Source of the DNA: Blasia pusilla
Taxonomy: Eukaryota
NCBI GenBank assembly: GCA_050084515.1
Contig: CM114271.1
Span: 2,232,001 to 2,296,000 of the forward strand
Direction of reading: 5' to 3'
DNA: 64,000 bases
Below are positions 9,736 to 48,096 of this stretch, in pieces. A program made the translations under genes and the position numbers. The notes beneath the pieces were generated by a model, which did not search any database, was not told the DNA's origin, and worked only from the letters and a program-made list of their open reading frames with translations. The number at the start of each line of letters is the position of its first letter. Position 1 is the first letter of the stretch.

Positions 9736-9870
9736 TGTTGTGCGCATACATATCGCTACACAACATACATCGCTGGTCGCATCTACACCACACAACGCCG
9801 ATCTTCCTCACACAAGGGTTGATCCACACATGTATAAAAATCAACTCATACATATACATGGAGATCACAC
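9736..9870 (-). repeat. Left terminus of element 1: inverted copy of repeat A (17917-18052)
   Basis: The reverse complement GTGTGATCTCCATGTATATGTATGAG...GTATGCGCACAACA aligns over ~135 bp with 17918-18052. Confidence 0.93.
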
Positions 9871-10559
9871 CTCGGGCCAGCCCCCCCCCCCTCCAACGTG
9901 GTAGGACCGGACGTGGTGGAAGGTCAACGTGGTGACAAGGCTACCAAGTGGGGGTGGATGTGGTGGAGCTGAGTACGTGGTAGGAGTGGAACCATACCAG
10001 GTTGAGTCAGGTTACAGGCCGCGTGTGGGGATAGGCGGAGAGGTTTGCGCGACATGATGTTTTCGGGCATGACGAGGATTTGCGAAAATTGACGATGGAG
10101 TGTCAGTGCGCATGATGCCGACGGGTTGTCCGCATCTGTTGACGGGAGGATCGACCCGTTGGTTGAGGAGAGTGTCGTGTTGCAGAGGTTGCCGTGTCAC
10201 ATGAGGGAATGCGTGTTGACGATGCAGTAGGTTGGAGGGCGTGATCAGGTTACCCATTCGAGTCCTTTTTCGCACTTGTCGTGTGTGATTGAGAGTGTTG
10301 GATATCGGGTAGTAGCTGGTACTAGGTGGGTGCAATGATGGTGACGAGTGTAGATTCTGTTCATGTGTAGCATGTTGGTGGATATACGGCGGTTGCCACA
10401 TAGGGGTCGCATGTATGACCGGAGAGTGTCGCTAGGTTAGGTGAGTAAGTTGGGAGGCTTATGGTGAGCCCGAGTGTCGAGGGTGCATGAGGTCGGGTAT
10501 GTCATCACGAGACTGATGTTAGCATAGGTGAGCTAGTGAGGAGTGTGGGAGACTCTCAG

Positions 10560-12200
10560 TGAGTCTGAGTGCTTGAGCGGATGAGATAGGGTTTGTCATC
10601 ACGGCGTTCTTCCAGGGTTCAGAAGAACAAGGTAGTGCAAGCAGTGGTAGTGGTGTGACACGGAGTGGAGTGAGATACCGAGGGGTTACCAGTGAGGAGC
10701 TACCTTGACATCCATCCGTGGTTGGATCGTCATCACTAGACAATGGGTCTGGTGACAAGATCGCACACAGAGACAGTAGTACTTAGCAAGAGATGGACGA
10801 CATGGGCCATCGGGGCATGCGTCGTTTCTTGAGTGTAGTGGGCACCATCGACTTAGATGATTTTATCGAGGAGTTCGACACATGGTGCAACTTTGAGGAG
10901 ATACGGACTCTGACATGGTTCAACCCTTTCATGGCATGGAAGGGGTTGTTCCAGCACTTGGAGGGTTCTCTGATGGATGACTACATGGAGTTTTGATCAC
11001 TATATTCAGTAGAGATCGATGCCTGGAGGATGTATTGGGCTCTAGGGTATGTGTCCAATAGTGGTCGCGAGGCATATGATGGCATTGTGAGAGGAGAGAG
11101 ACCCACACCATCAGCTCGGAGACTAGATGGAGAGGAGGGCAGTGAGATAGGCAATGTGGTAGAGGCCTCTGGTGGTAGAGGGCCACCCAGCTTCAGGCAT
11201 ATGATGGCACAGAAGTGGAGTTCTTTTGACAGATTGGGGAAGAGCTAGATAGGCGTGTGGTAGAGGACGACAAGTCAAGAGTCTGGTGGATTTTCAGCGA
11301 CGATCGGGTGAGAGTCTGAGAGAGGCATTCACACGCATGAGGAGGTTGATCATTGCTACGTATGGAGTGACTAAGGCACAGTTAGTCCAGTATTGGTATG
11401 GGGTTCTGGATCGAGAACTACGGAGGAGAGTCCGAGATGCGGTGTTGATTCACACAACGAAGCCCACATTGAAGGTGGTCTTTGAGTTGTCTGAGCATAT
11501 TGAGCTCAACATGAGTGAGGAGCAAGTAGTGACCGCTGGATTTTCTCGAGAGTTGACGGGTCCACGAGCGCCGGTGACCCCACAGGTGCCACAGCGAGCA
11601 CCAGTACCACGGGAGCGGGCCAATGTGCCCAGAGAGCAGGGCGGGTACCGTGAGCCTATGAGACATGACCCGTACCTACATATGTTGCCCAACAGGGACC
11701 AATGTGGTCTTGTTGGAGGTGTGGAGGGGCCCATAGGCAGAGAGACTGCCCACAGCATGGGAGAGGACCACAAGCGCCTCCGATTGCTCAAGAGCCACAG
11801 AGGATGGCCCCACCACAACACTCGTGTGACTATTGCCACAGATATGGTCACACTAGGGATAGGTGTTTTGACCTTCGCCGAGAGGCACGTCCAGAGGTAG
11901 GCCAAGGGCTTGGGGGCGGTCGTCCTGGAGGAGGTTGGGGAGTTCTTCCTGGACGTGGTGGTAGGGGACCACCACCAGCCAGAGGAGATGGAGCAGGAGC
12001 ACCAGAGCCGACTCTTCTCTCACGCATCGATCAGTTGGAGTAGAGGATTGCTGCCATGATGATGATGCAGCTTAGGGAAGGCACGGAGCTGCGAGCAACT
12101 AGTGTGACTCCAACTTCTACCTCTTACCCTGACCCGGGTGAGGATCTCACCATTATGGGGTTTATGTGTAGTGCAGCCTAGGTTGAAGCAGCTGTAGTGA
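10560..12200 (+). pseudogene. gag: gag of element 1 with two Zn knuckles
   Basis: Motifs GVTRSGVRYR and DFQRRSGESLREAFTRMRRL, plus knuckles CWRCGGAHRQRDC and CDYCHRYGHTRDRC (ORFs 10793, 11286, 11702). Boundaries approximate. Confidence 0.8.
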
Positions 12201-12709
12201 TGACTCAGGGGGTTGCGAGAGGCACCGAGCCATCGAGAGGAGTTGAGATTGACCCACTAGAGGGGACCGATGGGCGGCAGGCCAGGGTTCCATGGTCATT
12301 CACATTGTCGGAGGCACTACACACACCATCGATGGTGCCTTGACAACCAGCGGTGCCTATAGCTCAGGCATGTGCGTCGACGTCACAAGGAATGGGAGTG
12401 ACAACTCCTATGCCGGCTCGAGTGCAGTCAGTGTCGACCATAGTGTTGGAGGTGGCCACCAGAGTGAGTCAGACTCCACTATTTTCCGCCATAGAGTTGG
12501 CAATGTTAGGAGTTGGACCAGCTGAGGTGTTCCGGCTGGCCGCCACGTTGTGTGAGCGTGGAGAGGTGACTGCTTCTTGTTCAGAAGTAGTTGAGGGGGT
12601 GGTGGACTTGCCCTCAAATTTGGTGCTCGGGACGTTCCCCACAGAGTCGTGGCATGCGGCGGCGACGAAGTTGGTAGACATGCCAGCTTGACCAGCCATA
12701 GAGCGAGCA

Positions 12710-13130
12710 GTGGTGACACCTGGAGTAGTCTTACTGGATAACCGAGCTCGAGTATTTCGCTTGGTTAATCCGACGGGGATAGCATACCACCTGCAGCGCG
12801 TCCTACTTGATTCGGGAGCGCAACCCTTGATGTTAGGGAAGGCGGCGTGTTTAGCATTGGGGTTACAGAAGGCAGACATTGAGCCTTGTCCCTTCCAGAT
12901 ATAGACCTCAATTGGGGGCGTGTCACCCACGCAGTATATGACTCGACAGGAGATAGTTGTTAGAGTCCAGCCAGAGCATGCAACGGATAGTGCTATGGTG
13001 CGCACATGTGCGATTACGACACCAACTGAGTCGTACAATGTGTTGGTGGGTAGTACAGTGTTATATCCCCTAGGATTCATCCTTGACTTCTGGGAGGAGA
13101 CCATTGCTTATCGGCCAGGGTGGCGGTCAA
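12710..13130 (+). pseudogene. retroviral-type aspartic protease of element 1
   Basis: Catalytic RVLLDSGAQ near 12800 and a C-terminal YNVLVG motif. Confidence 0.85.
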
Positions 13131-13524
13131 GTAACGGCCGGATGAGTCAGTTACCCGTGCAGTTTGCGAGACGAGGTGATCGATCACGGGACGAGTCTGT
13201 GACCACGTTGGCAACTTTCACACGTAGTGTTAGCTGGCCAGGAGAATTGTTGGAGGGGAACGCACATGCAGAGGATGTCCCAGTAGCGGATAGTCCCACG
13301 GAGAGACAGGCCATGGCGGGTGTCTCTTCCCATGTTGGCGAGACCTCTTCACCATTGTGGGGTAAGACTCGAGAGCTACAGAGGAGTGCCGACGACCTTG
13401 TGAGGCAGGCGTGGAGTCATGCTTTTATCCCGGAGCAGCGAGAGTCACGTGGCGATCGGGCTCTTGGAGTGGAGACGTTGACCCCACTGGATACCGCACC
13501 CATTGTGTGGCAATGCCCAAAGGA

Positions 13525-14490
13525 GGGTGTTAGGGTGTTAGATCTCTTTGGAGGGATTAGCACCGGATTGGTTGCAGTATTGCAGGCGGGCATATGGGTG
13601 CATCAGTACCTTTATGTGGAGAGAGATGAGACCCCGCGGCGAGTATCATTACGTCACGTGGCAAGATTGGTCTAGAGGTATCTTGAGTTGTTGCCGGTAT
13701 CTGCAATACGGGGATATCAGCATACACTACCCGCCGACATCTCTTTGGTGGGGGTGCAGGATCTGGACAGAGTTGGCACCATTCATTTGGTGATTGCTGG
13801 ATGGCCATGTCAGGGTCATTCATCAGTTGGCCGAGGATTTGGATTGCAGGATCCGAGGTCAGGGATGTTTTGGGAGATGTTTTGCGAGTAGTACGACATT
13901 TGGAGGGGAGTCAGACATGTTCTCCAACATACATTTTGGAGAACGTGCCGTTGTTGGAAGACACTCGTGCACGTGTGATGATGAGTGTGCATCAGGTGAG
14001 GTCCTGGTTGGGACCTGATGTGTTGCTAGATGCGGCGAGAGTTGGATCACGTGCCCATCGTCCACGACTGTGGTGGACGAACCTGATACCATCAGAGGTA
14101 CTGAGTTGAGCATACGATGGAGTCCAGAGAGCACCACATCTCATAGTGGATGCTATTTTGGGCTCAGGGCAACGATCTCAAGTGGTGACACGGGATGATA
14201 GACCACCGTTGGCCATGGCCAATAGGGTGGGGGAGTTGAGGGCAGCCTTACCTACGTTGGTGAGCTTCCCAACATCCCATACCTTTCATTAGGGAGGGCC
14301 AGGCATGATTTGGGATGAGATGACCGGAGCATTGGAGGAGCCTACAGCAGATGAGGGCGAGCGCGCCATGGGGTTCGTTACCGATACTACAGCGGTGCTA
14401 GGGATGATTGAGGCATCCTGGAGACAGGTGTTGGGGCAGGAAATGGACCTCAACTGTCTCACATGGATAGTCAGCCTAGGTATGGCTGAG
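13525..14490 (+). pseudogene. C5 DNA cytosine methyltransferase domain (DNMT3-like) within pol of element 1
   Basis: Ordered motifs: I VLDLFGGISTG, II YLYVE, IV IAGWPCQGHS, VI YILENV, VIII AHRPRLWWTNL, IX ERAMGF, X LGQEMD. Interrupted by stops and frameshifts. Confidence 0.9.
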
Positions 14491-14861
14491 CAGAGATGGA
14501 TGCAAGTGTCATCCATGCCGTCACGTCCACGAGTTGGACCATTGCCTACAGGGTCTGTACAGGCATTGGCTGGGGGCGAGACGAGGAGAGATAGGTACCC
14601 ATGGACTTCCTGGGAGGTTGTTCGAGCAGAGAGTGCGAAGGCGGCTAGAGTAGCACATGTTCATTTTTTCGGATGTAGAGCATGGTGTATGAGGTCAGAG
14701 TGGAGTGGCTGTTGCGGAGGTGGCTAGGGTTGCAACATAGCAACCAAAGCCGGAGGCTGTGTCCTCTCCAAGTGAGGTCACGATGGAGACTTGGGAGCCT
14801 ATGATAGGTCTCAAGTTGATAGGAGGAGAGCGACGGTGAGTTCATAGGTTTCTGAGAGGGC

Positions 14862-16210
14862 ATGTGTTTGCGCACCACGGGTACGCTGAAGGGTCTCGGG
14901 ATACGGATTGAGTTGGCTAGTGATACGCTGATCTTTCGTCGATCCTACAGGTATTCTGATATGGAGCGAGCCTTGATTCAGAGCAAGAGTCAGGACTTGT
15001 TGGAGGCAGGACTTGTGGAGTTATCACATGGGGAGTATGCATCTGCCACAATCATGCCGGCCAAGAAGGATATGTATGGCAATTGGACGGATAGGCGGAT
15101 GTGTGGAGATTACCGTCCTATCGACCGACAGACGAGGTCAGATCAGTACGCCATGCCTACTCCTGAGGAGATCTTTGATGCGGTAGGGCATGCAAAGATC
15201 TTTAGTACTTTAGATCTCCAAGCTGGCTATCATCAGCTTCCTATCAGGTTGGAGGACAGGGACAAGACAACATTCTGGGGGATAGATCGGTTCGAGAGAG
15301 ATTGCTCGTATCAGTGACGGTTCTTACCATTTGGGTTGAAGAACGCGCTTGCAGAGAGTTATGGATAGGATTCTAGCTGGCTTGGATTTTGTACGATGTT
15401 ACATAGATGATATTCTTATCTTCAATTCCACGATTGAGGAGCAAGAGTGACACCTAGAGGAGGTGTTCTGGCGATTGCAGTTACATGGACTGAAGTTACA
15501 TCCAGGCAAGTGCAGATTCTTTCAGGAGCAGATTGAGTACTTGGGACACACCATATACCCGAGTGGGTTAGGCGTTCAGCACACGAAGGTAGAGGCTATT
15601 GCGCAGATTCCACGCCCTACAAATGTGAGTCAAGTCTGAGCATTTCTTGGACTGGCGAACTTCTATCAACGGTATGTCAAGGGTTTTAGTGCGATAGCAA
15701 AGTCTTTGACCTTGTTGACGAGACTTGATCAGGTTTGGTTGTGGGGAAATGATCAGGGGCGAGCATTTCAAGAGCTCAAGGATAGGTTGACGTCCTCACC
15801 CATTTTACAGAGACCGGTTAGGGGTTGCCTATTCCAGTTACATACGGATTCGAGCATGTTGGGTCTAGGAGCACTGCTTACTCAGAGGGATGACGAGGAG
15901 AGGGAGTTCGTTGTGGCTTACGCGAGCCGATCGAACAACATTGCAGAGTCGAAGTACAGCTCCTACGAGGGAGAGTGCTTGGATGCAATGTGGGTTGTGG
16001 CACATTTCATATGCTATTTATTTGGAAACCCTTTCACACTTATCATTGATCATCAGCCGTTGAGGTAGTTGATGGAGTCTGACAAGCTTACGGGAAAACT
16101 TGCCAGATGGGCTCTATTACTACAGGAGTATGAGTTTGAGGTGGTTCATAGGCCAGGTCGGCTGAACCAGGATGCGGATGGGTTGAGTTGTAACCCATGT
16201 CCGAGTCAGA
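14862..16210 (+). pseudogene. reverse transcriptase and RNase H of element 1
   Basis: RT motifs RMCGDYRP, FSTLDLQAGYHQ, LPFGLKNA and CYIDD (~15397-15411). RNase H motifs FQLHTD, YEGECL, IDHQPL, NQDADGLS. Confidence 0.93.
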
Positions 16211-16559
16211 GAGACAACACAGGAGCTCGATGGCACGGAGAGAGTGATGAGGAGATGATGCCCGGTTGGCATGCATCTGCCTATCTTTGTTGGTTGACTA
16301 TGGCAAGTCAGCCACATGTGATGACTCCAGTGGTGGGGTTGGATGATGAGTCTTTGGATCCAGAGGTCAATGAGGAGGCGACAGGTGGTCGTGATATCCA
16401 TGACGACATGGAGGTTGTGGAGTTCTTGCGCACTGGCATCATAGCGAGCACAGTGAGTGCTAGGGAGCGGGATCGGATCCTACAGAGAGCCAGGAGGTTC
16501 AGGTGGGAGGGGACTCACATTTTGCGGGTATGGGGAGATGGTAGGATACGAGTGGTACC

Positions 16560-17833
16560 TCATCCTTCCCAGCGAGCACGTGTAGTGCGACATACCCATG
16601 AGGAGTTGGGACATTTGGAGTAAAGCGTACTTACAGCTAACTCCAGATTCAGTATTGGTGGCGCGGCATGCATACTGGGGTACAGTAGTTTGTGGCCAGA
16701 TGTATGGTATATGATAGAGTGCGAGCATCCTTCAATGCTCCCACTCCGCAGTTACATCCCTTGCCGATTATGGGTTTAGGTTATCGGTGGAGTTTAGACT
16801 TTGCGGGACCTTTGTCATTGACGGGGCGTCATCATAGATACGTGTTGGTCATGGTGGAGCATTTCTCCAAGTGGATAGAGTTGGTGGCACTATCGGACAA
16901 GGCGATCGAGGGAACAACTTATGTGTTTCTAGATCGTGTGCTTAGTCACTTTGGTGCACCGGCGGAGGTGTTGACTGACCAGGGTACGGAGTTTAGAGGA
17001 GAGTTTCAAGCATTATAGATCAGGCGCTGATAGATCACCGCACCACGTCCAAAGATCATCCTGAGGCGGATGGGTTGGCGGAGAGAGTGGTACAGACGGT
17101 GAAGAGAGGATTTCGCAAGTATGGCTTGCAACGGGGACAGTTGAGGGAGTGGGACCTACAGTTGTCATGGTTGGCTATGGGTTATCGCTTTAGTCGGCAG
17201 GCATCCTTGGCGTCATTTTCACCGTACTTTTTGCTCTTTGGGAGAGAGCCAAATTTACCTGTAGCGATTCGACGTGACATGGAAGAGGTATTAGATCTTG
17301 ATGATCAAGATGTGTGGGTACAAGCATGTTCTCAGAGGGCGGAGGTTATTCGTAGAGTTATGCCTATGGCCTTTGAGAACTTAGCTATTGCTCACCATAG
17401 AGATACATTGAGGTACACGACCATTTGTGGAGGAGATTATCGTCTAGGGATTAGGAGGTTTCATCCTAGAGACTACGTGTATTTATAGCAGGCGACATCC
17501 ACGACGCTAGATGTCATTGCAGGGCGCACGATCCTATGTGTGCGCGAGGTATTATCGACCGGAGTCCTCATGTTGGAGGGACGGGATGGTATGGTTTGGA
17601 AGGATCATGTGCGCAATTGTGTGCCATGTCATCTTCCGAACGTAGATGGGACAGTGGATCCGAGCTTGGAAGTGGTACCTACAGACTTGAGGTGTATGTT
17701 GTGTGGATCTGCGAGGGGTGCAGCCACCATGTTGGTATGTGATGGTTGTTCTCGAGGATGGCATATGTCATGTATGACCCCCCCCCCCCTCTTGATGTAG
17801 TTCCCACAGAACGATGGATTTGTCTGAGATGTG
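16560..17833 (+). pseudogene. DDE integrase with C-terminal PHD finger of element 1
   Basis: HHCC-type HEELGH...C region, core WSLDFAGP / LTDQGTEF / GLAERVV, then C4HC3 PHD CMLC...CDGC...WHMSC...WICLRC (17692-17833). Confidence 0.9.
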
Positions 17834-17916
17834 TACAGGGTAGTAGGTCATGTCAGAGAGATGTGATATTTTCTATCTGGAGTTGGAGGGATCCAACTGC
17901 CAACTAGGGGGGCGGT

Positions 17917-18254
17917 TGTGTGATCTCCATGTATATGTATGAGTTGATTTTTGTACATGTGTGGATCAATCCGTGTGTGGGGAAGATCGGTATTTTGTGG
18001 TGTAGATGTGACCAGCAATGTATGTTGTGTAGCGATATGTATGCGCATGACAACTGTCACATCTGAGTAGCTGATAGGCCGAGATCTATCGTGGATAGAG
18101 CGTAGGAGCCAACAGACTATCTTGAGTGTAACTTTGTCCCACGGTGTCGAATGAGGTTGAGGATAGGTCCATTATGTCAGGAACGACGTTCCTAACACAA
18201 TATCCACGCTCTATCCACGATAGATCTCGGCCTATCGGCTACTCAGAAGTGACA
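17917..18254 (+). repeat. 3' region of element 1: A (17917-18052), AC spacer, B (18055-18103), 102-bp spacer, inverted B (18206-18254)
   Basis: The 49-bp B arms match as an inverted repeat with 2 mismatches. Junction reads CATGACA-AC-TGTCAC. Confidence 0.93.
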
Positions 18255-19158
18255 ACTATCACGTTCGTATAAACAAGAGGATGCTCGATGGTAATCACGT
18301 ACTCTCAAAATAATGGGTCATATTATAACATCCAATGTGATGAGTAAAATCAGATGCAACCTCTGCATCATTGGCGGATGGCCTCCTCCCTAAATAATCG
18401 CATACTTGAATGTGTCCTGATTTTGTGCACTAGCGAAGTTCTAAAATTCTATGGGCATAACGTTCCAAAATAACTCGTTATGTTGAGAACATGTTTGCAT
18501 CCGCACATTAGGGTCATTGAGATTCAACACCCCACAAATATCCTCATGGATTGTCATAGGTGAATTGGGCATTCATTCATAGAGCAAAAAGTAAGTTGAA
18601 AAGGATAAGTCATGGTAAATGAGACATAGGATGAGATAATATTGAGGCCTTAGAGGGGTCTTGTACTTCTCCATTTTGAGAGGTCATATGTAACCTGCTC
18701 TTAGAAGATGACCTACGAGCGTCGGTCACCCTTTCTTTTATGCGGAGTGATAATCTCAGAGAGGTTAATCCTCTCATCCTTTGTATGTAGCCACTTGGGC
18801 CTATACGATTTGAGGGTTAGTTGGCAGTTGGATAGGTGTTGGTCTTGTGAGAGGATCAATGTATAGTTGGTAGGGATTTAGTACCTTGAGTACTCCTGGT
18901 CACTTGTGACTTGTTAGGAGGAAGTTACTTGTGTGCATAGTTCATCCATGGAAGTGCCCAAGGGGCTTACCTTGAATGAGGTTCATTTGGAGCTTATCTT
19001 CTATAGTACAGATCTATATTAAGATCTGTAATACAATGCAACTTGCATGTATTGAACCTAGAGTCTCTCTTGTAGAGTGGGATAAGATTGATCAGAGATC
19101 ACACATTGAGAATTCATCGCATATTATTTCTTATTGCTACTATCGTGTGTATCATTGA

Positions 19159-19491: not shown

Positions 19492-20024
19492 ATCATTGAG
19501 TGTATGCTTGGATGAGGCCTAGTTGATCGCATATTTTATCAATTTCATATTTATAATAGGATTGCCCATTAATTTATGTGTTTGGATTTATAATTAAATG
19601 GATCTTAGATTTTTGAGCATGACATCCGATGGATGTTGGAAACGCTATCTATTTGTACGTAAATATGAGAGATGCTTGCCTACTAGACCTATAGGCTATT
19701 GCGAACCATAGCCAACCTTCTAAGTGACTTTTGTTCAAAGTGTACTTCTGAAAATCCTTGTTCACCATGTGAACAACTTGCTCCGCTAGACCATCCACCT
19801 AAGGATGATCTATGCTACTCCATCAATTGCTCTGTCTAGTAATGAAACCAACTCTGTGTACTTTTTCGGATGCATAGACAACATACATTGCTATCACCAT
19901 CCATACATCCATAAATACAAAATACCACACTCATTCATGATATCTACACACATAGATGATTGTGTACCAAAATATCTACAATGAAATAGTAAGTTCCTTA
20001 ACATGGCTCCAAATGAGCCGAAAA

Positions 20025-20190
20025 CTCTTACGAGGCTTTTGTGGGAGGAAGGAGCGATGGTGATTCTTGAAGTGGAGGTTGCCTCTTTGATTCTTCCTCC
20101 CACATGCCTCCATGTTCTTACAAGGCTTTCGTGGGAGGAATGAGCAATGGCAATTCTTGATCTGGAAGTTTCCTCTTTGATTATTCTTTC
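20025..20190. repeat. Tandem pair of a ~75-bp dispersed repeat, with an inverted copy at 5980-6053
   Basis: CTTAC.AGGCTTT.GTGGGAGGAA.GAGC.ATGG...CTCTTTGATT occurs twice; its reverse complement is at 5980-6053. Confidence 0.75.
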
Positions 20191-21221
20191 AACTATGCAA
20201 AATCTAACTTCGAACCTCTTGTTTTAATTCATACTAGTATCATGCATGTGTTATGCATGGACGAGGGAAAAATTTTCCTAGCACCCCTTAAGTCTTTAGC
20301 CCTTTTTATTGAACTACTCTTACAATATAGCATGTGTCAACAATAGAAAATCTTTCAAAAGATATGTGTCAACAGTAGAGGAGGGTTTCTCCAACCCCAC
20401 CATATGTTAAAATTAAAATTTTAAAAATTTATTTGACCCAAAAGTTTTATTTTTTCTGAAACGTGTCGTGCGAATCCACATCGTCATACAACATACATCG
20501 CTGACATACCATATTCACATACATACATAACATAGACGAGAGCATCCACAAACACAAGTGTACCACGACTGAAATCCGTGTAAGACCTACTGTCATAAAA
20601 CACGTATAGAATCACATACAATCGAGCCAAACCCACTCCACAATGGAAGAATCCAGGTCGAAGCTTGTGGGAGCCACCATAGCCAAGAGCTCTACTCACT
20701 ACCAAGGCTAACTCCCAACGCAATAGGCTCAAATCAAAGAACTAACTGTTCTTTGAGTGCACTCCACACTATATCCTCCAACCTAAGAGTGGGCTCTACT
20801 GGAAAAGTTATCCTCAACTAAGTAACCCCCAACCTTATGTATAAAACCGCATCTCTACCTAGACACTACGGCCCTACATAAGGTATGGCCTCTACTAGCA
20901 CACTATACTCTACGACATAATCCGTATGGTCATGACAGCTGTCGTGCAAATCCACATCGTCATACAATATACGTCGTTGACATACCATACTCACATACAT
21001 ACATAACATAGAAGAGAGCATCCACAAACATAAGTATACCACAACTCGCCCCCCTTACTGGCGGTTAGATCCCTCTAACTCCCAAGTAGCCCTATACATC
21101 TACTACATGCTATACACCTTCGTGGGTGCACGAATCAGAAGGCCGGATGCTAGGTTGCCCCATCGTAAGTCGCACATCTGTAATCCATATCATGCAAAGA
21201 TCAAGTCATCTACCTCTCCTA

Positions 21222-22165
21222 AATACATCAAGGACAAACCCACCTTCCAGTAGGAACAACATCCATACGTGGAGTCAAACACATCATGTGCCAACCCCTA
21301 GAACACCGATCACACACCAACATACGGGTTGCGTTACCAACAGACCCACACAACATGCACCTCAAGCTAGCACGTATCATGGCTAAGCTTGGGTCAACAG
21401 TACCATCTACATTTGGAATATGACATGGCGCACAATTACGTACGTGGTCCTTCCAAAAAACTCCATCACGACCCTCCAACATGAGAACTCCAGAAGCTAA
21501 CACCTCGTGCACTCGTAAAATAGTGCGGCCTGCCGTCACATCCAACGTTGTTGGTGCAATCTGCTGCAAATAGACATAGTCCCCCACATGGAACCTACAA
21601 ATCGATGGTCGATAACCTCCACCCCGAATGGTTGCATTCCGCAACGTATCCCTGTGTTGAGCAATGGCGAGGTTCTCAAAGGCTGTTGGCATAACTCTCC
21701 AAAAGAGCTCTGCCCGCTGAGAACACACTCTCATCCACATCTCTGGGTCATCAAGGTTCACCACCTCACTGGACTTCCGACAATTCTTCTTTGGCAAGTC
21801 CGGATCTTGGCCATATAACGTAAAAATAAGGTGAGAAGGAAGCCAAGGATGCTTGGCGATCGACCTATACCCCATGGCTAACCATGGCAACCGAATATCC
21901 CAGTCTCAAGATGCCCCTTCTGTAGGCCATACTTGCGCAATGCCCTCTTCACCGTCTGAACCACACGCTCAGCCAAACCATCCGCCTCTGGATGATCTCG
22001 AGACGTGGTCCGATGATCAATCAACGCCTTGTCATACATGACCTGAAACTCACCCTGAAACTCTGTACCCTGGTCGGTCAGCACTTTAGCTTGTGCACCA
22101 AAATGACTAAGCACTCTATCAAGAAACGCATACGTCGTTCCCTCACTTGCCTTGTCAGGTAATGC
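21222..22165 (-). pseudogene. integrase core, C-terminus and PHD finger of element 2
   Basis: LTDQGTEF...GLAERVV; PHD CMLCGSVGNATRMLVCDRCSRGWHMMC...WVCP*C. Confidence 0.9.
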
Positions 22166-22980
22166 TACCTCCGATAGTAGTTTGCCAATCCCATGAATGC
22201 CCGAACTCTACTCACATCTGTCGGACGCGGAATAAGTGCAATAGCGTCCACCTTTGCTTGCTGAACTCCCAAACCACCTGGATAGATCACATGACCCAAG
22301 TACTCAACATCCTCATGGAAGAACTTACACTTTCCTGGATGCAAACGTAGACCATGAGCTTTCAACCGCTCAAACACAATCTACAAATGTATCTGATGCT
22401 CCTCCACCATGTTACTGAACACCAAGATATCATCAATGTAACATCGAACAAAATCCAACCCTGCTAGGATCCTGTCCATCACTCTCTGAAACTCGGCAGG
22501 TGCATTCTTCAACCCAAAGGGTAAGAATTTCCATTGGTACAAACAATCCTTGCCATGAGAGTTGACACCCCAAAATGTTGTCTTGGCCTTGTCACTCTCT
22601 CGAATCGGCAATTCATGGTATCCTGCCAGAAGATCCAAAGTATTGAAAATCTTTGCCTGTCCCACCACATCAAAGATCTCCTCAGGTGTAGGCATGGCAT
22701 ACCTATCGGCCTTGGTTTGCCGATTGATAGGACGGTAATCTCCACACATCCGCATATCCGTCTAGTTGCCATGCATATCCTTTTTAGTAGGCATAACAGT
22801 GGCTTATGCATACTCTCCATGCGACAAATCCACTAATCTAGCCTCCAAAAGGTCCAACGTCCTACTCTGAATCAGGTCCCTCTCCATATCACTATATCGG
22901 TAGGGACGACGAAAGATTGGCATATCATTAGCCAAATCAATCCGTATATCGGGTCCAACCAAAACACCCAACTCCTTCAT
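22165..22980 (-). pseudogene. reverse transcriptase of element 2
   Basis: RMCGDYRP, LPFGLKNAP, CYIDD, EYLGH, GLANYYRR. Confidence 0.93.
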
Positions 22981-23369
22981 GCTAAAGGCAAAACAACTCT
23001 TATAAGCATATAGGAACTCTGTCAAGCGTCGTTTCTCACCTCCCGTAAGCTTGGGCCCAAGTAATGGCTCCCAAGTCTCCTCCACTGATACACTAGAGGG
23101 AGAGGACAATGCCATTGGTCGCACATAACCCCTCACAAGATGGTACACCCTTAGCTACACCATCAGCTGAGCAAATAACTCCTCCACCAGCATGAGCAAC
23201 CAACTCCACATGCCCAGCCATTACATCCCATTTACTCCAAGGATGCAAAATACTACTCTCCTCGCCCCCAACCGATGCCTCTACCGTCGCGGTAGCCATC
23301 GAGCTCATCACAAGGGGTGGAAGACCCACAGACATAGTCCGAAGTCGACGCTGCTCGGCCATACCAAGA

Positions 23370-24330
23370 CTCAAAATCCAAGTCAAACAATTCAGGTCCA
23401 TGGCCTAACCCAACACATGAGGTCGTGAAGCCTCAGAAATGGAAGCAACCGCTGTCACACTAGTAGCAAATCCCATTGCACGCTCTCTCTCATCAGTGTT
23501 AGGCTCCACCAACTATCGCACATGAGAATCCCATACAAGCCCGGGACCACCTTCCCTGTAGGTATGTGACGAGGGAAAACTCACAAATGTGGGTAGTGCC
23601 ATCCTAGGCTGGCCCACACGGTTCACCACTGCCATGGGTGACCGATCAATAACCCTCACCACCTGAGAAAGTCGCCCAGTATCCAAGATACTATCCATTG
23701 TAAGGCAAGGTTCCCACTGCACTGCATCATATGCTCGACGTAGAACCTCCCTAGGCAACAAGTTTGTCCACCACAAGCGTGGACGATGTGCACGCGAGCC
23801 AACTTGCGCTGCATCCAACAACACCGCTGGTCCAATCCAAGACCGCACCTCATGAACACTTGCCATCATCCGGATCCGAGTGTCACCAACAATGGAACAT
23901 TCTCCAGAATGTAAGATGGAGCACGTGCTTGATGAACCTGAAGATGTCGTAACACCCGTAACATCTCCCAAAATAATCGAGACCTAGGGTCGTGTAATCC
24001 CTCAATACGACCAGTACGTGTATGACCCTGACATGGCCATCTCGCAATCACCAAATCCACAGGACCAACCCTCTCAAGGTCCTGCGCCCCCAACAATGCA
24101 ATGTGTGACGGCAAAGCATGCTGGTATCCACGAATAGCTAATGGCGGCAACAACTCAGGATATCTCCGCATCAACTGACCAATATGTCGGGATGAGACTC
24201 TCTGGGCCGTCTCATCTTGCTCCACATACACGTATCTCCGCACAAGAATACCGGCCTGCAACATTGCAGCCAAACTAGTGCTAATTCCACCAAAGAGATC
24301 TAACACACAAATGCCCTCCAAATGGATCTT
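23370..24330 (-). pseudogene. C5 DNA cytosine methyltransferase domain of element 2
   Basis: VLDLFGGIS, YVYVE, DLVIARWPCQG, YILENV, AHRPRLWWTNL, ERAMGF and LGQAMD in order. Confidence 0.9.
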
Positions 24331-24682
24331 CGCCATACAATGGGTGTAGTATCCAAAGGGGATAACCCAACTGGACCAGAAGTAGGAGTCCGCCATGGGG
24401 ACTCCTCTTCCTCGTGAGGTATAACAGCCTCACACCAAGCCTCCTGCACTAGGCGATCAGCCTCCTGCCATAGTGCACCGCCTGAACTCCAAAGTAGCAC
24501 ATACAACGATGAGGATGCCACAATTTTGTAGCCACTGCTACAAAACTAGGGACCTCCTCTACCTCCTCATGTACAAGAGAATCTACAGCAGAAACATTAT
24601 CCTCCAAAAAGTCTCATGGCCAAGTGACTACTCCACTAAAACCAGCCACAGATGCTAACACCGTTGGGAAAGACCCTCCTGG

Positions 24683-25105
24683 TCAAGCCCCATAAATAAA
24701 TCTCACAGGAACTTGGCTCATACGTCCATCCCCGGACTGCCAACCAGGTCTATAAGACGCTATCTTAGTCCAGTAATCCATATGAAAACCCATCGGGTAC
24801 AATATTGCTCCTCCAACTAGTACATCATACGACTCGGCTGATGTGACCACTATAGGTACTCCCAACCGGGAGCTATCAGTCGCATGATGTGGTCTCAACT
24901 GTACAGAAAACTTCTCCCATGTCATGAATTGAGACCTATCATTGGCTCCTCCAAGTGATGTTTGAATCTGGAATGGGCAAGGCTCAAGCTCTGACCTCCG
25001 AATACCCAAACCAATACATGCCGCCTTTCCCAACATCAAAGGTTGGGCACCAGAGTCTAACAAGACTCTATCTAGTCTATACACCTGTCCTGTAGTACTC
25101 AACAA
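24683..25105 (-). pseudogene. aspartic protease of element 2
   Basis: RVLLDSGAQ...YDVLVGG. Confidence 0.85.
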
Positions 25106-25559
25106 TCAGAATATCCCACTCCGGTTGTCCAACATACATACACCAAGTGTAAGCCTCTTACAATCAATGGCTGGCTGGGCTGGTAATGCATCCATCTTTG
25201 CCGCTGCTGCCTACCAAGTAGCACTAGTACTCAATGCTACACCTGACATAGAGGGTCGCTCCACCACAACACCATCATCCACCTCAGCACATGTAGCAGT
25301 AACACCCCCACGTTCACACAACGTGGCTGCTAGCTGAAATACATGAGCTAAGTCAACTCCTAAAGCCATCACCGTGGGCAGAAAAACAATGGGAATCCTA
25401 ACACCGAAGTTGCCATCCACAATATCAAGATGGATGCTACATCCATGTCTACTACACGCGATGTAGATGCCTCAGTCCCCACTGTAGGCTCAATAGGCTG
25501 CGTAGGAACCATGGATGGAGTCCTAAGCACCTTAGACAACAAGAATGATTGGGGAAGCC

Positions 25560-27208
25560 CAGCCTACCTCCCAGCCTCACCCCTCTGTGGGTCCAACTCC
25601 ACAGTAGCACCAAGTAGCTCTGACGCTCGAGTGGCCTCTCGTAACTGCAGCTGATGCCTTAACCTGTGGTGCACTCGCCATATAAGAGAGATGATCCCCT
25701 CCATAAGAGGTGGAAGCCCCTGCTCCCGAACCTGCTCTATCCTGGATACCAGCCATAGTAGCCAACTTCTGCTCCAACTGCTAAATCTTGGCAGCCATAG
25801 CTGACTCTGTCGTAGTGGTAGGGGTAGCCACCGTAGGCTCTCCAACCACAAGTCCACCTCTACCACCTCTACCACCTCGACCTCTCGGAGCTACTCCACC
25901 ACGGCCGCGGCCTGATCTCAACTCTGGATGAAGATCAAAGCAACGCTCTCGAGGATGACCTGGTCTCCCGCAATGATCACACTGAGTTGGGGCCGACTGA
26001 GGCCCATCCTCCAAAGTCCGTCTCCCATCCTCTTGGGGACAAAACCTCTTAACATGATCACCTCCACACGTCCAACATGACTGTCCTTGCTGCGGGGCAG
26101 CAAATGAAGGCAATGGTCTCTGCGCAAGTGTCCCTCTAGGACCTGACTAAGGTTGTGTGTACCCCCCACCACTCCCACTACTACTACTACCACCACCACT
26201 ACTACGAGAATGTGAGGTGGACTGCTTAACACGAGAAGTAGTAGTTGTATCCCTACTGAATGTGGATGTCACCACTCTCTCCTCCACTATGTTAAGCTCA
26301 ATCGTCTCAGATAGAGCAAACACATGGGTCAATGTGGATGAATCATCACTCATAAGAGTAGCATCACGTACCCTGTGGCGCAACTCTTTGTCCAAGATCC
26401 CATACCAAAACTGGACTGCCTAAGCCTCAGTCACATCCTGGGTAACTGAAATCAAGCGTCGCATACGAATGTAAGCCTCACGAAGACTCTCACCAGTCTT
26501 TCGCTCAAATTCCTGAAGACTTCTCAACTTCTCTGTCTTCACTCCTTGATAGTTCTTCTTCAACCTCTTGAAGAACTCTGCAACCGGGTTGAACGATGGT
26601 GGGGCACTAGTACCTCCACTAGTACCCCCACTAGTACCTCCATGGGTACCTCCACTGGTACCCCCACTCCGGCTCGTACTCGTACCACTCAACGTCGGGT
26701 TGGCTGGCATAGTAGGAGCACTACTACCAATACCACCATGGGTGATAGACACATAGCCTGGAGACCAATATTGTCTCCACGCCTCAATCTCAGCACCATG
26801 GTCCTTCCTAAACTCATGGTAATCATCCATGGGTGGTCCCTCCAAGTGCTGAAACAACCCCTTCCAAGCCAAGAAGGGTGTAAAAAATGTGGCGTTTTGC
26901 AACATTTGCATATCACACCACGTATCAAACTCCTGCATGAAGTTCTCCAACTCAATGGTGCCCACTGCACCCGAGTATCGTCGTGGGCCCTTCATGGCCC
27001 CATATATCCCGTCCATGTCCCAAATCAATGGAACTGCAACACTCGATAACAACGTAGAAGACTCGGTGTTTGGAACGCCCTCGTCCTCCTCTTCTTCAAT
27101 CGTCGGAAGTGGAAAAGGTAGCCGATACCTCAATCCACTCCGTGTGAAACCACCAGTGTCCGCACCACGGTCCCCAACCAGACCACCAGACAGCTCCGTG
27201 ATGACCAA
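25560..27208 (-). pseudogene. gag: gag of element 2
   Basis: ORF 26420-27208 (GGFTRSGLRYR...FERKTGESLREAYIRMRRL) and knuckles CWTCGGDHVKRFC and CDHCGRPGHPRERC. Confidence 0.82.
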
Positions 27209-29226
27209 CGCCGATGCCGCACCACCATCAAAAAGTAACCAAGTGACGTCGATGCCGCTGTACTATTCTAGCTCTACTAGCTATGGATGTAGGCAACCTA
27301 ACCTGTCATCACCACAAGAAGCCCCCCACGGTCTACTGGTCATCACTCCAGCCTCACTATTGGTAGCATACAGGAGTAACACTACTCTGGAAATCAGCGT
27401 CAACCCTAACAATGGGCGCGCAAGCAAGAAGCATCGATGGAGGGGATCCAAATACAGGATGTCCAACGACAATCCTCCAATCACAAATGGAAATCAAGGT
27501 AACACAATCCACCAAACGTGGCGCCCCCTGAATCCACAGAACCCACCACACAATTCTAACGTAATAGCTACTCCGCCGCGGGTCGATGACGTGCTAGTCG
27601 GACTCGCAGCACCTGAAAATATCACATGCATGGAGAGGCTACACCATACTATGCGTTAGAGGTCCATCAACCAAAAACCTGAGATGCATAAAACGCCTAA
27701 CACATCTCCAAACAACACCAAATGAGCTACACCAGTGTGTACACTAGCATAGTTAAGAACTTAGCAGTTAAGCGTCTTCTAGGCAGAATAGCCCAAAGAT
27801 GGGTGATCAGTTATGCAACACTCAAATCAAAAATCTTGCAAAAAATGCCTCACGCCCAAGCAAGCAAGTTTGCTTGCTTGCTCCTTACTCCGCCTCTCAC
27901 GCCCTCACGCCCACTCGCCCACTCGCCCCGAGCTACCACAAGTTGCCTCGAAGCCTCGAAGTCTCGAAATGCTTGAGACTTACCCCTATCGCCACGCTTT
28001 GTCATGCTTCGCTATGGAGAGAGGCCCAACCAGGGCACCCCCAACGGGATAGGCATCTCCAACAATAGACGAATCACCAACCAACCAGCCCCTCCGATCT
28101 GCTGTCCACCATAGCCAGACCTTGAGCTAGTCCGCAAAATTTTGATCAGCAATTACTCCACAAATCCTTGACCAAAATTGAATCTATTTCAACCAAAATT
28201 CAATTGATCACCATAGCTATCTCTCCACAAAGAATCAGCTTCAACCAAGCTCTGTACTTTGAGCTAAAAATCAGACAAACTTGCTGTCCATACACCTCCG
28301 AAATTGCAAATCCGACAGCGCTTCTGCCCAGATTCATGCACGCAAAAATCCGCAAGGCTCCACACACTCAAGCAGATAGCTTCACATGAGATCACAATAC
28401 AAGTAGCAATAGGAACCTCTCACCCGATCTGGATGAACTTCAACAGAGCTTCCGCACTCCAAGCTCTCCACATCAGAAAACCGCCGAATACGAACCAGAA
28501 TCTTCAATCCTTGATAACTTCCAACTCCCTTGACGGAATCCGGTGATCTAAAGCGCGGTGGAAAGCTCTCAGCAAGGCGCTTCTTTCCCAACCAACCACG
28601 CACCAGATTCCCACCTCCAACATAGGCCAAAAGCCACGAACATCCACTGTTGATTACACAATCAGCCCTAACAAGATCCTATTGATCAACAATCGAAGCT
28701 ACCATCGATCTACTCTAGTTCTTTGAATGAAATCCGTATAAGACCTACTGTCATAAAACACGTATAGAATCACATACAATCGAGCCAAACCCACTCCACT
28801 ATGGGAGAATCCCTGTCGAAGCTTGCGGGAGCCACCATAGCCAAGAGCTCTACTCACTACCAAGGCTAACTTCCAACGCAACAGGCTCAACTCAAAAAAC
28901 TTATTGTTCTTTGAGTGCACTCCACACTATATCCTCCAACCTAAGAGCGGGCCCTACTGGAAAAGCCACCCTCAACGGAGTAACCCCCAACCCTATGTAT
29001 GAAATCGCATCTCTACCTAGACACTACGGCCCTACATAAGGTATGGCCTCTACTAGCATACTATACTCTACGACATAATCCGTATGGTCATGATAAACGT
29101 AACTTAAAAAATCCTTCCCAATCAAGCTTGAAAATTCTTTAAGAGAATCACAAAATATTTTTTAATGATGTGGAAAAAAAATTTGATTGAAGAAGTCTTG
29201 AGAAAAAATAAAAGATATTCTTATTA

Positions 29227-41187: not shown

Positions 41188-44100
41188 ATGACTACCCGGA
41201 TTACACCGGGGGTGGGAGCGAATCTCCTGGGGCAGCATGCGGCGGAGCGGAACCAGGATGCCACAGCTTACGTCGGGAATCTGGATGCTCAGGTGAGTTG
41301 CTGGAGTTCTGTTTCGTCGACTCTTCTTGTTTTTCGGCTCGTTCCCGAGCTTCTAGCGGAAAAATGATAATGTGGACGAGGGAGCTTATGCGCAGCTGAG
41401 CCATTTTGTGTTCCCGGATTTGTTTGAGCACCTGTGAAAATCACCTCCAAATGAGAGAGTGCAAGACCGGAAGGTCCACGAAGGTCCTGCACATGGGGTG
41501 AGCGTTGAGCTGACAAGCTGATTGCACTCAGGTCTCCGAGGAGCTTCTGTGGGAATTGTTCGTGCAAGCAGGACCTGTTGGTGAGTACATGCCCAGGAAT
41601 CGGCTCATTGGGACGTCCTAATCGTGTCTTCAAGATTTAGGGTTTATCACAGTACACGGAGTTCTTCAAATTCCTGTGGATGCTTCTGTTCATTTCGATG
41701 AATTCTCCGCAGAGATACCACGACATACGGTTGCAGCATCTGGTCCAACCTATTGAGGGTTTTTGTATGCATTGCAGTGAACGTTTATGTTCCTAAAGAT
41801 CGAGTAACGAATCTTCACCAAGGTTATGGATTCGTGGAGTTTCGAAGTGAGGAAGATGCTGATTATGTGAGTAACAGTTCTTCCTCGCAAAATTGTAATT
41901 CATCTTGTGAGTTATTGGTCCCAATTTTGATGTATGCGCTTTAGCACACCACGTTGAGTCTGCTTTCCCATCTTGTAGTAGATCTCGTTCCAGTTACTTA
42001 CTGTCTGTATGCGGGTTGTTTCGCAGGCCATCAAGATTCTGAATATGATCAAGCTCTATGGGAAGCCTATTCGCGTGAACAAAGTAATCACCTACAGTCT
42101 CTCTTGTCGTCGTGTATTGACATTCGTAGTTTATCAATCTCAACTGTTTCCTCCCTTGATGTCGTTGCCTGCTGCAGTGCCATGAATTTCCCTGTTTAGG
42201 GTTCCATTTGTTGACTGGGCCTTTCGAACCTTTTGACCATTTTAACCGCTGTTGATGCAAGTTTTAAATCTAGAGATATAAATGGGTCCCTAGTCTTGAT
42301 TCAGGTTTTGGGAAGGTGGCAGGTGTTGTCAGTCATGTTAGTTGTGGTCTTCGTAGACAATAAAACCAGCTTGCTTTGTGGTTGTGATTGCAACGCTGTC
42401 ATAGTATGTCTATTATGTATCTCAATTTCCTGAAATTAGACTGACCACCGAGAGGGCCCTCCTCATAGAAGTGCTCACAAGAAGACATGTGTGCACAGGC
42501 TTCTCAAGACAAGAAGAGCTTGGATGTGGGTGCCAACCTTTTTGTAGGCAATCTGGATCCGGTATGCTTCTGGCACAATTTTTCTGCTCAAGATTTTCTA
42601 TACCTGTGGTGACTGGCCTTGTTGACCATTCAGTTCTTATGTGAATTCTCTTTTGCTTTGAGCCACTGTAGATTTTGTACAGAATTTTTGGAATGTACAT
42701 GATAGAAAAAGTGGTACTATAGAAATCAGATGACACCCTTGACTTATCTGTCCACGCTGTTCAGGACGTTGATGAAAAACTGTTATACGACACTTTCAGC
42801 GCCTTTGGTGTGATAGTCACAAACCCAAAGGTGATCTCACAAAAGATTCATTTTGATTTTACTGCGACTTTTGACTCCTGACGCTTACTTTTCTCATACT
42901 TTTAAAAGCAATATGCTTCAGTAATGAAGATGTTGAGTCACAATATCTAGTGTGTCATGATATTGTTTTAAATAACTTCTGGAGAAAATATTTTATCAGT
43001 TCTAGGCAGTGGGGTTTACTAGGGTTCTGTATGGATGGGGTTGTATCAGATTATGAGGGATCCAGACTCTGGAAACTCCCGGGGATTCGGTTTCATCAGT
43101 TATGATTCATTTGAAGCCTCAGATGCTGCCATTGAGGTAAGCCCTTTTCTGAGTAGGTGTACCGTCTATAGTCTTGGTTCTGGAGTTTACTCTGCTGTTT
43201 ATTTTGGCATGAAGTCACCACTTCAACTGTTACAGTATCAACTAATTTACTGTCAATCTAATAGACCATTGCTTTGAATCTGCTTGAGCAGGCAATGAAC
43301 GGGCAGTATCTTTGCAATCGTCCGATTACAGTGTCATATGCTTACAAGAAAGATACCAAGGGAGAAAGGCACGGCACGCCTGCAGGTTTCTCCTTGCAGA
43401 CCTTTGACCAATTCAGCCTATTTGTACCTCTTAACTTTGTTTGGTTTCAACTGCTAAGACTTCTGTGGAAACTAAGTGCTGTGGTTGTGAATGTGCTGAT
43501 GAGGCCTACTGTGTATTAATGCAGAGAGAATGCTGGCTGCCAGCAATCCAAATGCACAAAAGAACAGACCTCATACTTTGTTTGCCAGTGGCCCACCATC
43601 CTTAGTAGGACCTCCAGTACCAGGTGCTGGGCCACCACCCATCCCACCTCAATCCAATGGTAACATGGGCCCTCCCCCAGGTCTCAATGGCAACATGCTA
43701 CCTCCTCCTCCTCCATTCGGAAATGGACCACCACCCATGCCTCCCCCTCCTCCCCAGCAAGGTCCTCCATCTCAGCCTCCCCCTCCACAAGGGCCTCCAG
43801 GTCATTTTGGTGGACCACCATCACAAGGGCCCCCTCATCAGATGCCACCACCTGGTTCCGGTCCTCCTCCTTGGGGCAACCAACCTCCACAACAAGGCAT
43901 GCTACCTCAACAAGGTGGAATGCCACCCCCACCTCAGTTTAGACCCGGACCTCCACCTCCTAACATGCCACCCCCTCCTGGTCCACCCCCACATGGATAT
44001 CATGGAATGAGGCCCCCTGGCCCACCGATGGGAATGGGTGGACCTCCTCCTCCTCCACCCTGGGGGCGAGGACCCCCTCCTCAAGGTGGAATGAGGCCAC

Positions 44101-44324
44101 CACCTCCCATGCAGGGCATGCCTCCGCCTCCTATGAATCAATCAGGTCCTCCAATGCAAGGCATACCACCTCGGGGTCCACCAGGTATGCCTCCCCCGCC
44201 GCCACAAGGTATGATGCCCCCTCCACCAAGGCAACAAGGTCCTCCTCCCCCTGGTGGAGCTCCTCCTCCCCCTCCTCCACCACCCTCAGCTCCGGCACCC
44301 AATCAACAACAGCAGGTAAGGTAA
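41188..44324 (+). CDS. SF3B4: Splicing factor 3B subunit 4 (SAP49): two RRMs and a proline-rich tail; 9 exons
   Basis: Exons 41188-41292, 41532-41580, 41778-41866, 42027-42083, 42499-42561, 42765-42830, 43050-43136, 43292-43385, 43525-44324. Motifs [47 protein letters not shown]. Confidence 0.96.
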
Positions 44325-47200: not shown

Positions 47201-48096
47201 AACGCCCCCTCCATCAAAGATACACATGGGTTGCTTTTTTTGGAGACGTTTTCCTTCTTCAGCATTATAGTGAATTGGGTTCTTCTCCTAGCACTTCCTT
47301 GTGTTTCAGATGATTGCGGACGATAAGTCTATCCTGAGATTTTATCTAGGAGCGGACCAAATTTATTAAGTCATAGCACCTCAGGTTTATTGTACAAGGA
47401 TCTAGTTCTGGAGGACGAGTTGCACAACAAACTACTCCTCTGAAGATCTATCAAAAGGAAGATACATTTGACTTCATAAATTTGGTCCACTCCTAATCAC
47501 AAAACTTGCCAGTGCAGCTGCTTGTAAAGCAGTTCTCCTCATTTGTGTGTTTATTAATACTGTAACACTCCTCAGTGTCACATACACCTAGTTGTTGATT
47601 GAGAGCTACATAGGAATAGAGGCATCTAAGATTGTCCATTATCATCCTCAAAGGTTGTATTGGTATTATCTATAACGGAGATTGTGTTTCAAATACAACA
47701 TTTGGCAAGTGTGGATGTATGACATTGCTTGAAACATGTGTATGCTTGCAATCATTCATAATTAAACCATGGATAAACTTTGCACCATCTAATAGAAGCA
47801 AGCTAGCAACTTTTAGGAAAATTTCTGTCATATGATATTTATGGCACCATCATATGTTGCACCCGTTGGAGGAGGGGAACGTAGGGTTATCTATTAGCAC
47901 ACTTAACATCCGTCTAGATGTTGCACCAAAGGTCCAAAATATAGGAAAAGATCCAAGAAGAGGTGGGTTTGATGATTGGAGTCACTTAGCAACCCTATAT
48001 CATAGAGTTTGGAAGAAGATGATCTCGAGGTTCCTGTGGATTATGACATTCATGGAGAGAAAGATATAGCATATGCACGGTTGGAGGCCTTCACGC

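Follow-up and report, generated by a model that had tools for sequence, protein, structure and literature searches.

Inactivated Ty3/Gypsy retrotransposon copies with a DNMT3-like cytosine methyltransferase domain in the bryophyte Blasia pusilla

The window analysed here is a stretch of 64,000 nucleotides of Blasia pusilla DNA (assembly GCA_050084515.1, contig CM114271.1, positions 2,232,001 to 2,296,000 of the forward strand). It has three diverged Ty3/Gypsy-type retrotransposon copies, E1 (~9.7-17.8 kb, + strand), E2 (20457-29093, - strand) and E3 (48945-57639, + strand), each of which carries a DNMT3-like C5 cytosine methyltransferase (DNMT) stretch between its protease (PR) and its reverse transcriptase (RT). 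These elements are, with a probability of roughly 85%, old inactivated insertions of a bryophyte Gypsy-DNMT3 lineage, in which the domain was under selection while the lineages were active. An initial annotation, made from the letters of the sequence, had already placed three diverged insertions at these sites and on these strands and had located the methyltransferase between protease and RT, and in this it was correct.

The methyltransferase domain

The retroelements were mapped with lists of stop-to-stop open reading frames, self-comparison, protein-to-DNA matches (tblastn) and Pfam. The gag, protease region, DNMT stretch, RT and integrase (INT) are found in all three copies, and RNase H (RH) in E1 and E3. 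The Pfam order PF00078, PF17917/PF17919, PF00665 gives the arrangement gag-CCHC-PR-DNMT-RT-RNaseH-INT, which is the Ty3/Gypsy order and bears out the earlier assignment to a retrotransposon family. The PF00078 match to the RT is weak in E1. E1 and E2 are 69% identical in nucleotides over 1022 nt of the DNMT domain and 72-76% identical in the RT-INT region, and the position of the domain between protease and RT is common to E1, E2 and E3.

The E1 domain (13511-14496, +) has motif I (LFGGIS, 13544-13561), motif IV (WPCQG, 13802-13816), motif VI (ILENVP, 13933-13950), motif VIII (AHRPRLWW, 14053-14076) and motifs IX/X (GERAMGF...MDLNCLTW, 14356-14466) in its translation. The E2 domain (23348-24318, -) contains the same series, with LFGGIS at 24297-24280, WPCQG at 24039-24025, ILENVP at 23910-23893, AHRPRLWW at 23791-23768 and MDLNCLTW at 23401-23378. 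The motifs (I, IV, VI, VIII, IX and X) are in order and non-permuted in both copies. E3 retains a remnant (53657-54245, +) that is matched in two pieces, 53657-53878 and 53853-54245, with motif I at 53666-53683 and the C-terminal motifs at 54102-54215. Its motifs IV-VIII are deleted: the lost part corresponds to residues ~122-238 (motifs IV, VI and VIII) of P0001, a 368-aa relative of the window domain that was used as query and reference. Translations and protein-to-DNA matches thus agree with the initial annotation that E1 and E2 have the ordered motifs and that E3 lacks the central ones.

The E1 domain is pseudogenised, with four in-frame stops (TAG at 13673, TGA at 14107, TAG at 14290 and a fourth in the translation) and one frameshift near 13880. 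The E2 domain has all the motifs; its frame is broken by 2 stops and by two frameshifts, one near 24330 and the other near 23890. A scan with PF00145, as proposed earlier, returned a match for the longest E2 piece (E 1.5e-7; 31.6 bits, the cut-off being 22), and the fragmented E1 and E3 pieces by themselves gave no Pfam match. The uninterrupted relatives P0008, P0005, P0012 and P0011 score ~35 bits (about 1e-8). In an alignment of 31 diverse members of the family, C140 (in PCQ), E183 (in ENV) and both R223 and R225 (in RxR) are invariant or nearly so. The domain, with its full motif set and a predicted fold that is DNMT3-like, looks catalytically complete. A PWWP/ADD-type N-terminal reader was not found in the elements; the domain lies between protease and RT, and apart from a PHD finger downstream of the integrase there is no reader-like domain.

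The domain was also compared with proteins of solved structure. A single Marchantia protein searched against all PDB sequences gave 27 matches, of which the first 25 are DNMT3A, 3B or 3C (best 1.7e-8). A family profile built from the 31 diverse members matched DNMT3A at 2.6e-27 in three collinear stretches and DNMT3B/3C at about 1e-25, followed by plant DRM (3e-16 to 7e-14), M.HhaI (7e-10) and DNMT2 (4e-5); DNMT1 is absent from these profile matches at E up to 0.01. The AlphaFold model of the domain has a predicted local distance difference test (pLDDT) score of 91.6 and a predicted template modelling (pTM) score of 0.89. A Foldseek search of this model against the PDB returned DNMT3A, 3B or 3C for all matches listed (through rank 48), with E about 3e-19, and the template modelling score normalised to the target is 0.80-0.85 for isolated methyltransferase-domain chains and 0.41-0.56 for longer multi-domain chains. 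A Protein Atlas search gave generic PF00145 clusters only. Profile and predicted fold both put DNMT3 first, as the initial annotation had suggested from the motifs, and support the view that the domain is closest to DNMT3 among characterised C5 methyltransferases with a solved structure, its motif order not being rearranged as in DRM.

Relatives and inheritance of the domain

The domain belongs to a large family. A word-indexed protein search with a piece of E2 returned 32 proteins, and all those with a named source are from Marchantia polymorpha, Calypogeia fissa or Sphagnum. A HMMER search of 1.84 billion representative sequences gave 4268 matches at E up to 1e-3, of which 965 reach 1e-10 and 269 reach 1e-30. 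A metagenome scan found 160 relatives, and the 80 loci analysed among them are 42-77% identical to P0001. The collinear order PR-DNMT and/or DNMT-RT is present in 31 of the 38 metagenome loci of at least 7 kb. The other seven (L055, L057, L058, L067, L070, L071 and L072) form a diverged subfamily of 42-48% identity and share one internal rearrangement, in which PR and part of the DNMT lie on the minus strand, DNMT and part of the RT follow on the plus strand, and RT and INT come last on the minus strand. This common rearrangement suggests a non-autonomous derivative that was copied many times.

Local domain mapping separates two architectures. Type A is PR-DNMT-RT-RH-INT, as in the window, and type B is RT-RH-DNMT-INT-PHD. 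Among 150 proteins with a full-length domain, 46 are of type A, 63 are of type B and 41 are too short to be assigned. The named members of type A are from Marchantia, Calypogeia, Sphagnum, Closterium and Klebsormidium nitens (KFL_009030040), and those of type B are from Scenedesmus ('pol', KAF8056149.1), Haematococcus, Hariotina, Chromochloris and Cymbomonas. Of 20 proteins checked through their clusters, the only source names obtained were Scenedesmus, Hariotina and Closterium. The K. nitens protein (P0307) has PR at residues 49-183, DNMT at 311-565 and RT at 677-942, then RH and INT, which is the window order. According to local BLAST, a PHD finger (PF00628) lies downstream of the integrase in most relatives of both architectures.

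A FastTree phylogeny of 153 DNMT domains separates A from B in one split (support 99). An IQ-TREE phylogeny of 63 domains (LG+C20, quick) recovers this split with an SH-like approximate likelihood ratio (SH-aLRT) of 93, and in it P0307 shares the A side with the window copies; the Klebsormidium-type, Closterium-type and bryophyte-type clades are each supported at 99-100, and both window copies are inside the bryophyte clade. The DNMT trees cover domains of this family, with one very long Symbiodinium branch as outgroup, and the A/B split is read without an order of descent between the two architectures. A tree of the RT-RH region of 98 proteins has the same single A/B split (100). Since the DNMT and RT-RH trees are congruent, the domain has travelled with the element backbone and is inherited together with it. 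The window family is not a separate invention, as it clusters with the charophyte KnitGypsy-Dnmt3 type.

Selection and decay

The DNMT domains of the window copies differ at a proportion of non-synonymous sites (pN) of 0.23-0.29 and of synonymous sites (pS) of 0.67-0.73 (Nei-Gojobori), which is close to the PR and RT-RH values. The linker between PR and DNMT serves as an internal control in the same copies and has a ratio of 0.6-1.0. A wider survey of the ratio of non-synonymous to synonymous substitution rates (dN/dS) covered 1985 locus pairs among 72 copies. The median dN/dS is 0.86 at dS under 0.1, 0.60 at dS 0.1-0.25, 0.56 at dS 0.25-0.5, 0.23 at dS 0.5-1, 0.16 at dS 1-2 and 0.12 at dS above 2. 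Because dN/dS falls with divergence, the domain seems to have been selected in the active lineage, with each insertion decaying neutrally afterwards. The values of 0.12-0.23 in the deep comparisons do not fit neutral evolution of the domain. Together with the order in 31 of the 38 loci, the named relatives and the congruent trees, this purifying selection upholds the earlier proposal that the methyltransferase is a stable part of the element and not a one-off capture. The initial annotation had named a missing PF00145 match, a domain out of frame with protease and RT, and neutral evolution of the domain as results that would speak against it, and not one of the three was found.

Across the 80 loci and the window, the DNMT stretch holds 465 in-frame stops, and 358 of them are at codons for R, Q or W in the reference, including 119 changes of CGA to TGA and 141 of CAG/CAA to TAG/TAA. 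Such decay, mostly of the C-to-T type, would be expected from deamination of methylated cytosine.

A conserved stop codon downstream of the domain

The description of the methyltransferase as lying inside pol has to be qualified. In 26 elements the first stop past motif X is exactly 96 codons downstream, with the RT next in the same frame; this stop is TAG in 20 and TAA in 6, and CAACCC is next in 24 of the 26. More broadly, 52 of 70 elements have TAG/TAA and then CAAC(C/T) (TAG in 39, TAA in 13), ~288 nt past the MDLNCL motif, and 41 of the 52 have the site in frame with the DNMT. E1 has the site as TAG CAA CCA (14738-14746, +), where a nearby indel put it out of the DNMT frame, and in E2 it is gone through small deletions. 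The Marchantia models P0005 and P0008 end soon past the DNMT domain. Since the in-frame TAG/TAA is conserved in the main bryophyte subfamily, the DNMT there is the C-terminal part of a gag-PR-DNMT frame and not an interior pol domain. The location between PR and RT stands, and the placement inside pol does not hold for this subfamily. The site resembles UAG-CAR-YYA, a read-through context of plant viruses.

Expression

Three raw RNA-seq runs, from one organism and one study, were mapped to the window. The sense-strand RNA depth on E2 is 7-46 over the DNMT bins and 30-70 over RT-INT, and the cover on E1 is weak (0-4.6). The family is transcribed; the reads do not show transcription of these particular copies. 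A joint in the RNA reads that goes back 8157 nt (29046 to 20890) is read as cross-mapping between the two A repeats of E2, described below, and not as a circle junction.

Possible function and alternative explanations

Several observations weigh against the reading of the window elements as old insertions of a lineage with a selected, DNMT3-like and expressed methyltransferase. E1, E2 and E3 are all inactivated by stops, frameshifts or a deletion, and an uninterrupted DNMT is found in only 2 of the 80 metagenome loci, both in elements that are broken elsewhere. The deepest dS values are saturated, and conserved codons are favoured because the codon alignments were guided by protein matches. 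The label DNMT3-like is taken from solved structures, with the named host DNMT3, DNMT4, DNMT5 and DNMT6 outside the trees. In run X22, 1622 of 1645 reads are only 95-99% like the window, with fixed differences; the RNA reads derive from sister copies or another strain. The diverged loci L055-L079 carry a sense codon (TCC) at the stop site, Klebsormidium P0307 is a single continuous protein in its annotation, and the idea of read-through is inferred by analogy with a plant-virus motif. The Klebsormidium domain also gave no methylation in yeast, a result that the authors regard as inconclusive because human DNMT3B failed too (PMC5890265).

A mechanism can be proposed for the active lineage. The RT-INT part would be made by read-through of the stop codon, with RT-RH-INT-PHD continuing in the same frame. 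The methyltransferase would thereby be made in Gag-like amounts, as the C-terminal part of a gag-PR-DNMT product, and might be packaged with the particle or act beside it. The enzyme could then methylate the element's own new complementary DNA (cDNA) or its integration site de novo, the target probably being CG by analogy with DNMT3A and the Symbiodinium DIRS enzymes, so that a new copy would enter the genome already marked. By recognising histone tails, the PHD finger on the integrase may guide where new copies integrate. This mechanism of self-methylation in cis is tentative, its odds being somewhat below even.

A broader and more speculative form of the proposal, which is doubtful at present, is an ancient green-lineage Gypsy clade with its own DNMT3-like writer and PHD reader, ranging from chlorophytes to bryophytes, with a single relocation of the writer (RH-DNMT-INT versus PR-DNMT-RT). 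The bryophyte writer would be abundant through its position 5' of a leaky UAG and would methylate the element's own cDNA and possibly host DNA. If this were true, transposon-encoded DNMT3 would be a real contributor to bryophyte methylomes, which is directly testable in Marchantia.

It is rather unlikely that the domain is conserved without methylating DNA in cis. In that case its substrate could be RNA, it could work in trans, on the chromatin of the host or on rival elements, or it could serve with the PHD finger as a DNA- or chromatin-binding module for integration targeting. The inactivity of the Klebsormidium domain in yeast and the histone-reader-type PHD finger in the same polyprotein are in line with such roles, and RNA methylation and effects on the host are among the options offered by the authors of PMC5890265. 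However, the catalytic Cys, the Glu of ENV, the RxR motif and the S-adenosylmethionine-binding motif I are kept in the 31 very diverse members, which argues for catalysis, and the predicted fold matches the DNA-bound catalytic domains of DNMT3A/B over the whole target length.

Convergent capture is improbable; in that case a host DNMT3 would have entered a Gypsy element of bryophytes in an event separate from that in Klebsormidium, and the match in architecture would be a coincidence. Recurrent independent acquisitions of DNMT domains have been described, and the same source places the Klebsormidium acquisition 'in the K. nitens lineage' (PMC5890265); the trees, built without host DNMT3, also leave room for such an event. 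On the other hand, the PR-DNMT-RT insertion point is identical in Klebsormidium P0307, Closterium and the bryophytes, and in the DNMT tree as in the RT-RH tree a single branch sets all type A elements apart. The split direct repeats of the elements match the published description of the Klebsormidium element, and the window-type domain is 44% identical to the Klebsormidium element domain over the aligned part, compared with 20-23% for DNMT3A/B. An artefact, such as a host DNMT fragment nested beside transposon pieces or an assembly chimera, could be imagined since the copies are broken and E1 adjoins an inverted fragment of a related element, but its likelihood is negligible given the collinear order in three diverged window copies and in 31 of 38 long independent contigs, and the same order in annotated proteins from five named genera.

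Relation to known systems

The closest published system is KnitGypsy-Dnmt3 of Klebsormidium nitens (de Mendoza et al. 2018), which is described as having a non-rearranged Dnmt3 domain in a Gypsy Pol open reading frame (PMC5890265). The window elements share with it the Gypsy domain set, the non-rearranged DNMT3-like domain, the order PR-DNMT-RT-RH-INT and the A side of both trees. The Ka/Ks reported there is under 0.2 (PMC5890265) and compares with a dN/dS of 0.12-0.23 in the deep comparisons here. Its repeats are called 'the same as that of a DIRS retrotransposon' in a figure legend (Fig. 4c of PMC5890265), and the layout A1...B1-A2-B2 of the repeats here fits this description. The host here is a bryophyte, and the Klebsormidium and bryophyte clades are separate, each with a support of 100. 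The main bryophyte subfamily also has the TAG-CAA-CC stop, in contrast to the continuous P0307 model, and the comparison of PHD fingers is limited because P0307 is a partial protein. Action on the element's own cDNA or integration site was proposed by the same authors (PMC5890265).

Other systems are more distant. The chlorophyte pol proteins have the same DNMT family (34-41% identity, E down to 1e-156 against the profile) and a PHD finger after the integrase, but their DNMT lies between RNase H and integrase and they fall on the other side of the A/B split. SymbioDIRS-Dnmt3 of Symbiodinium also has a DNMT3-type domain in a retroelement, and its protein Skav213974 matches the profile at 2.9e-9; it is, however, a tyrosine-recombinase (DIRS) element and a distant relative on a very long branch. 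The catalytic domains of animal DNMT3A/3B/3C have in common with the element domain the motif order I-X, the fold and the C-terminal ExER..GF...T....R..LLG block, whereas the element domain is only 20-23% identical to them, is without PWWP or ADD and is embedded in a retroelement polyprotein. The N-terminal readers of DNMT3 are PWWP/ADD in animals and a domain of unknown function (DUF) in plants (PMC12344493). Chromoviruses likewise have a histone-reader-type domain fused to the C-terminus of the integrase, which is a chromodomain there and a PHD finger (PF00628) in the window elements. PHD fingers are described as widespread in retrotransposons (PMC6673714).

The Gypsy-DNMT3 type has so far been documented only from the alga Klebsormidium, and the bryophyte copies extend it to land plants. 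An opinion paper states that DNA-methylase-encoding transposons are absent from land plants (PMC6338049), and a 2026 preprint refers only to 'streptophytes (Gypsy-DNMT3)' (10.64898/2026.05.21.726589). Literature searches, with most subscription journals, supplements and Repbase/Dfam outside their scope, returned no paper on DNMT-carrying retrotransposons of liverworts or mosses. Transposon-encoded cytosine methyltransferases invert the usual view of methylation as a host weapon against transposons. The bryophyte copies bring this question into testable organisms, including Marchantia polymorpha with its annotated proteins, and RNA data support the family as well. They also point to a green-lineage family of far greater age and breadth than one algal lineage.

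Element structure and other features of the window

The remaining parts of the elements are as follows. E1 (+) has gag at 10793-11666 (52-60% identical by tblastn to the P0008 gag of Marchantia), the protease region at 12758-13285 (54% identity to the PR part of P0008), the RT at 14868-15588 (Pfam and protein-to-DNA match), RNase H at 15679-16167 (PF17919 1e-26, PF17917 8e-21), the integrase at 16854-17522 (PF00665 1e-10) and a PHD finger after the integrase at 17675-17782 (PF00628 5e-7). In E2 (-), protein-to-DNA matches place gag at 26084-27016, the protease at 24569-25105, the RT at 22252-23058 and the integrase at 21530-22207, and the PHD finger is at 21228-21377 (PF00628 1.6e-9); RNase H is missing between RT and integrase (22207-22252). 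In E3 (+), matches of the same kind place gag at 50967-51815, the protease at 52904-53419, and RT, RNase H and integrase at 54593-57264. A PHD finger is absent from E3, in which the coding region continues directly into the 3' repeat. An RT fragment just 5' of the E3 5' repeat (48073-48441) is 90% identical to the E3 RT (54856-55181).

Direct terminal repeats of 255-369 nt are present in E2, E3 and the metagenome loci L006, L040, L056 and L073. In E2 (-) the 5' repeat A1 (28725-29093) is 93.5% identical to A2 (20567-20935), and self-comparison shows a further repeat of ~110 nt as B1 (20933-21046) and B2 (20457-20570). The 3' A copy is flanked on both sides by such a further repeat (~110-119 nt) in E2, L040, L056 and L073, so that the split direct repeats A1...B1-A2-B2 occur in all four elements that have both A copies and downstream sequence. 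E3 (+) has A1/A2 only, its 5' direct repeat (48945-49199) being 97.6% identical to the 3' one (57386-57639).

This layout is shared with the PAT/Ngaro tyrosine-recombinase retrotransposons, for which PMC4157794 gives A1-B1-A2-B2 and places the internal repeat 3' of the coding sequence. The window elements differ in that they encode a DDE integrase (PF00665), and no tyrosine recombinase was seen in them by Pfam; because of the DDE integrase they are not of the DIRS order.

A terminal direct repeat pair was not found for E1, which has no detectable 3' repeat. The right side of E1 adjoins inverted fragments of a related element, namely a 130-nt segment of 93% identity and integrase pieces (18351-18605 and 19718-19819). 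The 130-nt inverted repeat of E1 (9741-9870 versus 18047-17918) was considered as a DIRS-like inverted terminal repeat and rejected: its right arm belongs to the neighbouring inverted fragment, since inverted integrase sequence from a related element lies beyond it at ~18351-18605.

Two further features of the window are of a general kind. The GC skew is strong and strand-specific over the elements (10001-18000, 20001-28000 and 50001-58000), at +0.18 to +0.30 for those on the + strand and about -0.22 to -0.24 for that on the - strand; the sense strand of the elements is G-rich and C-poor. A 273-aa open frame at 43503-44324 (+) consists nearly entirely of proline-/glycine-rich repeats and may be a host-gene exon.

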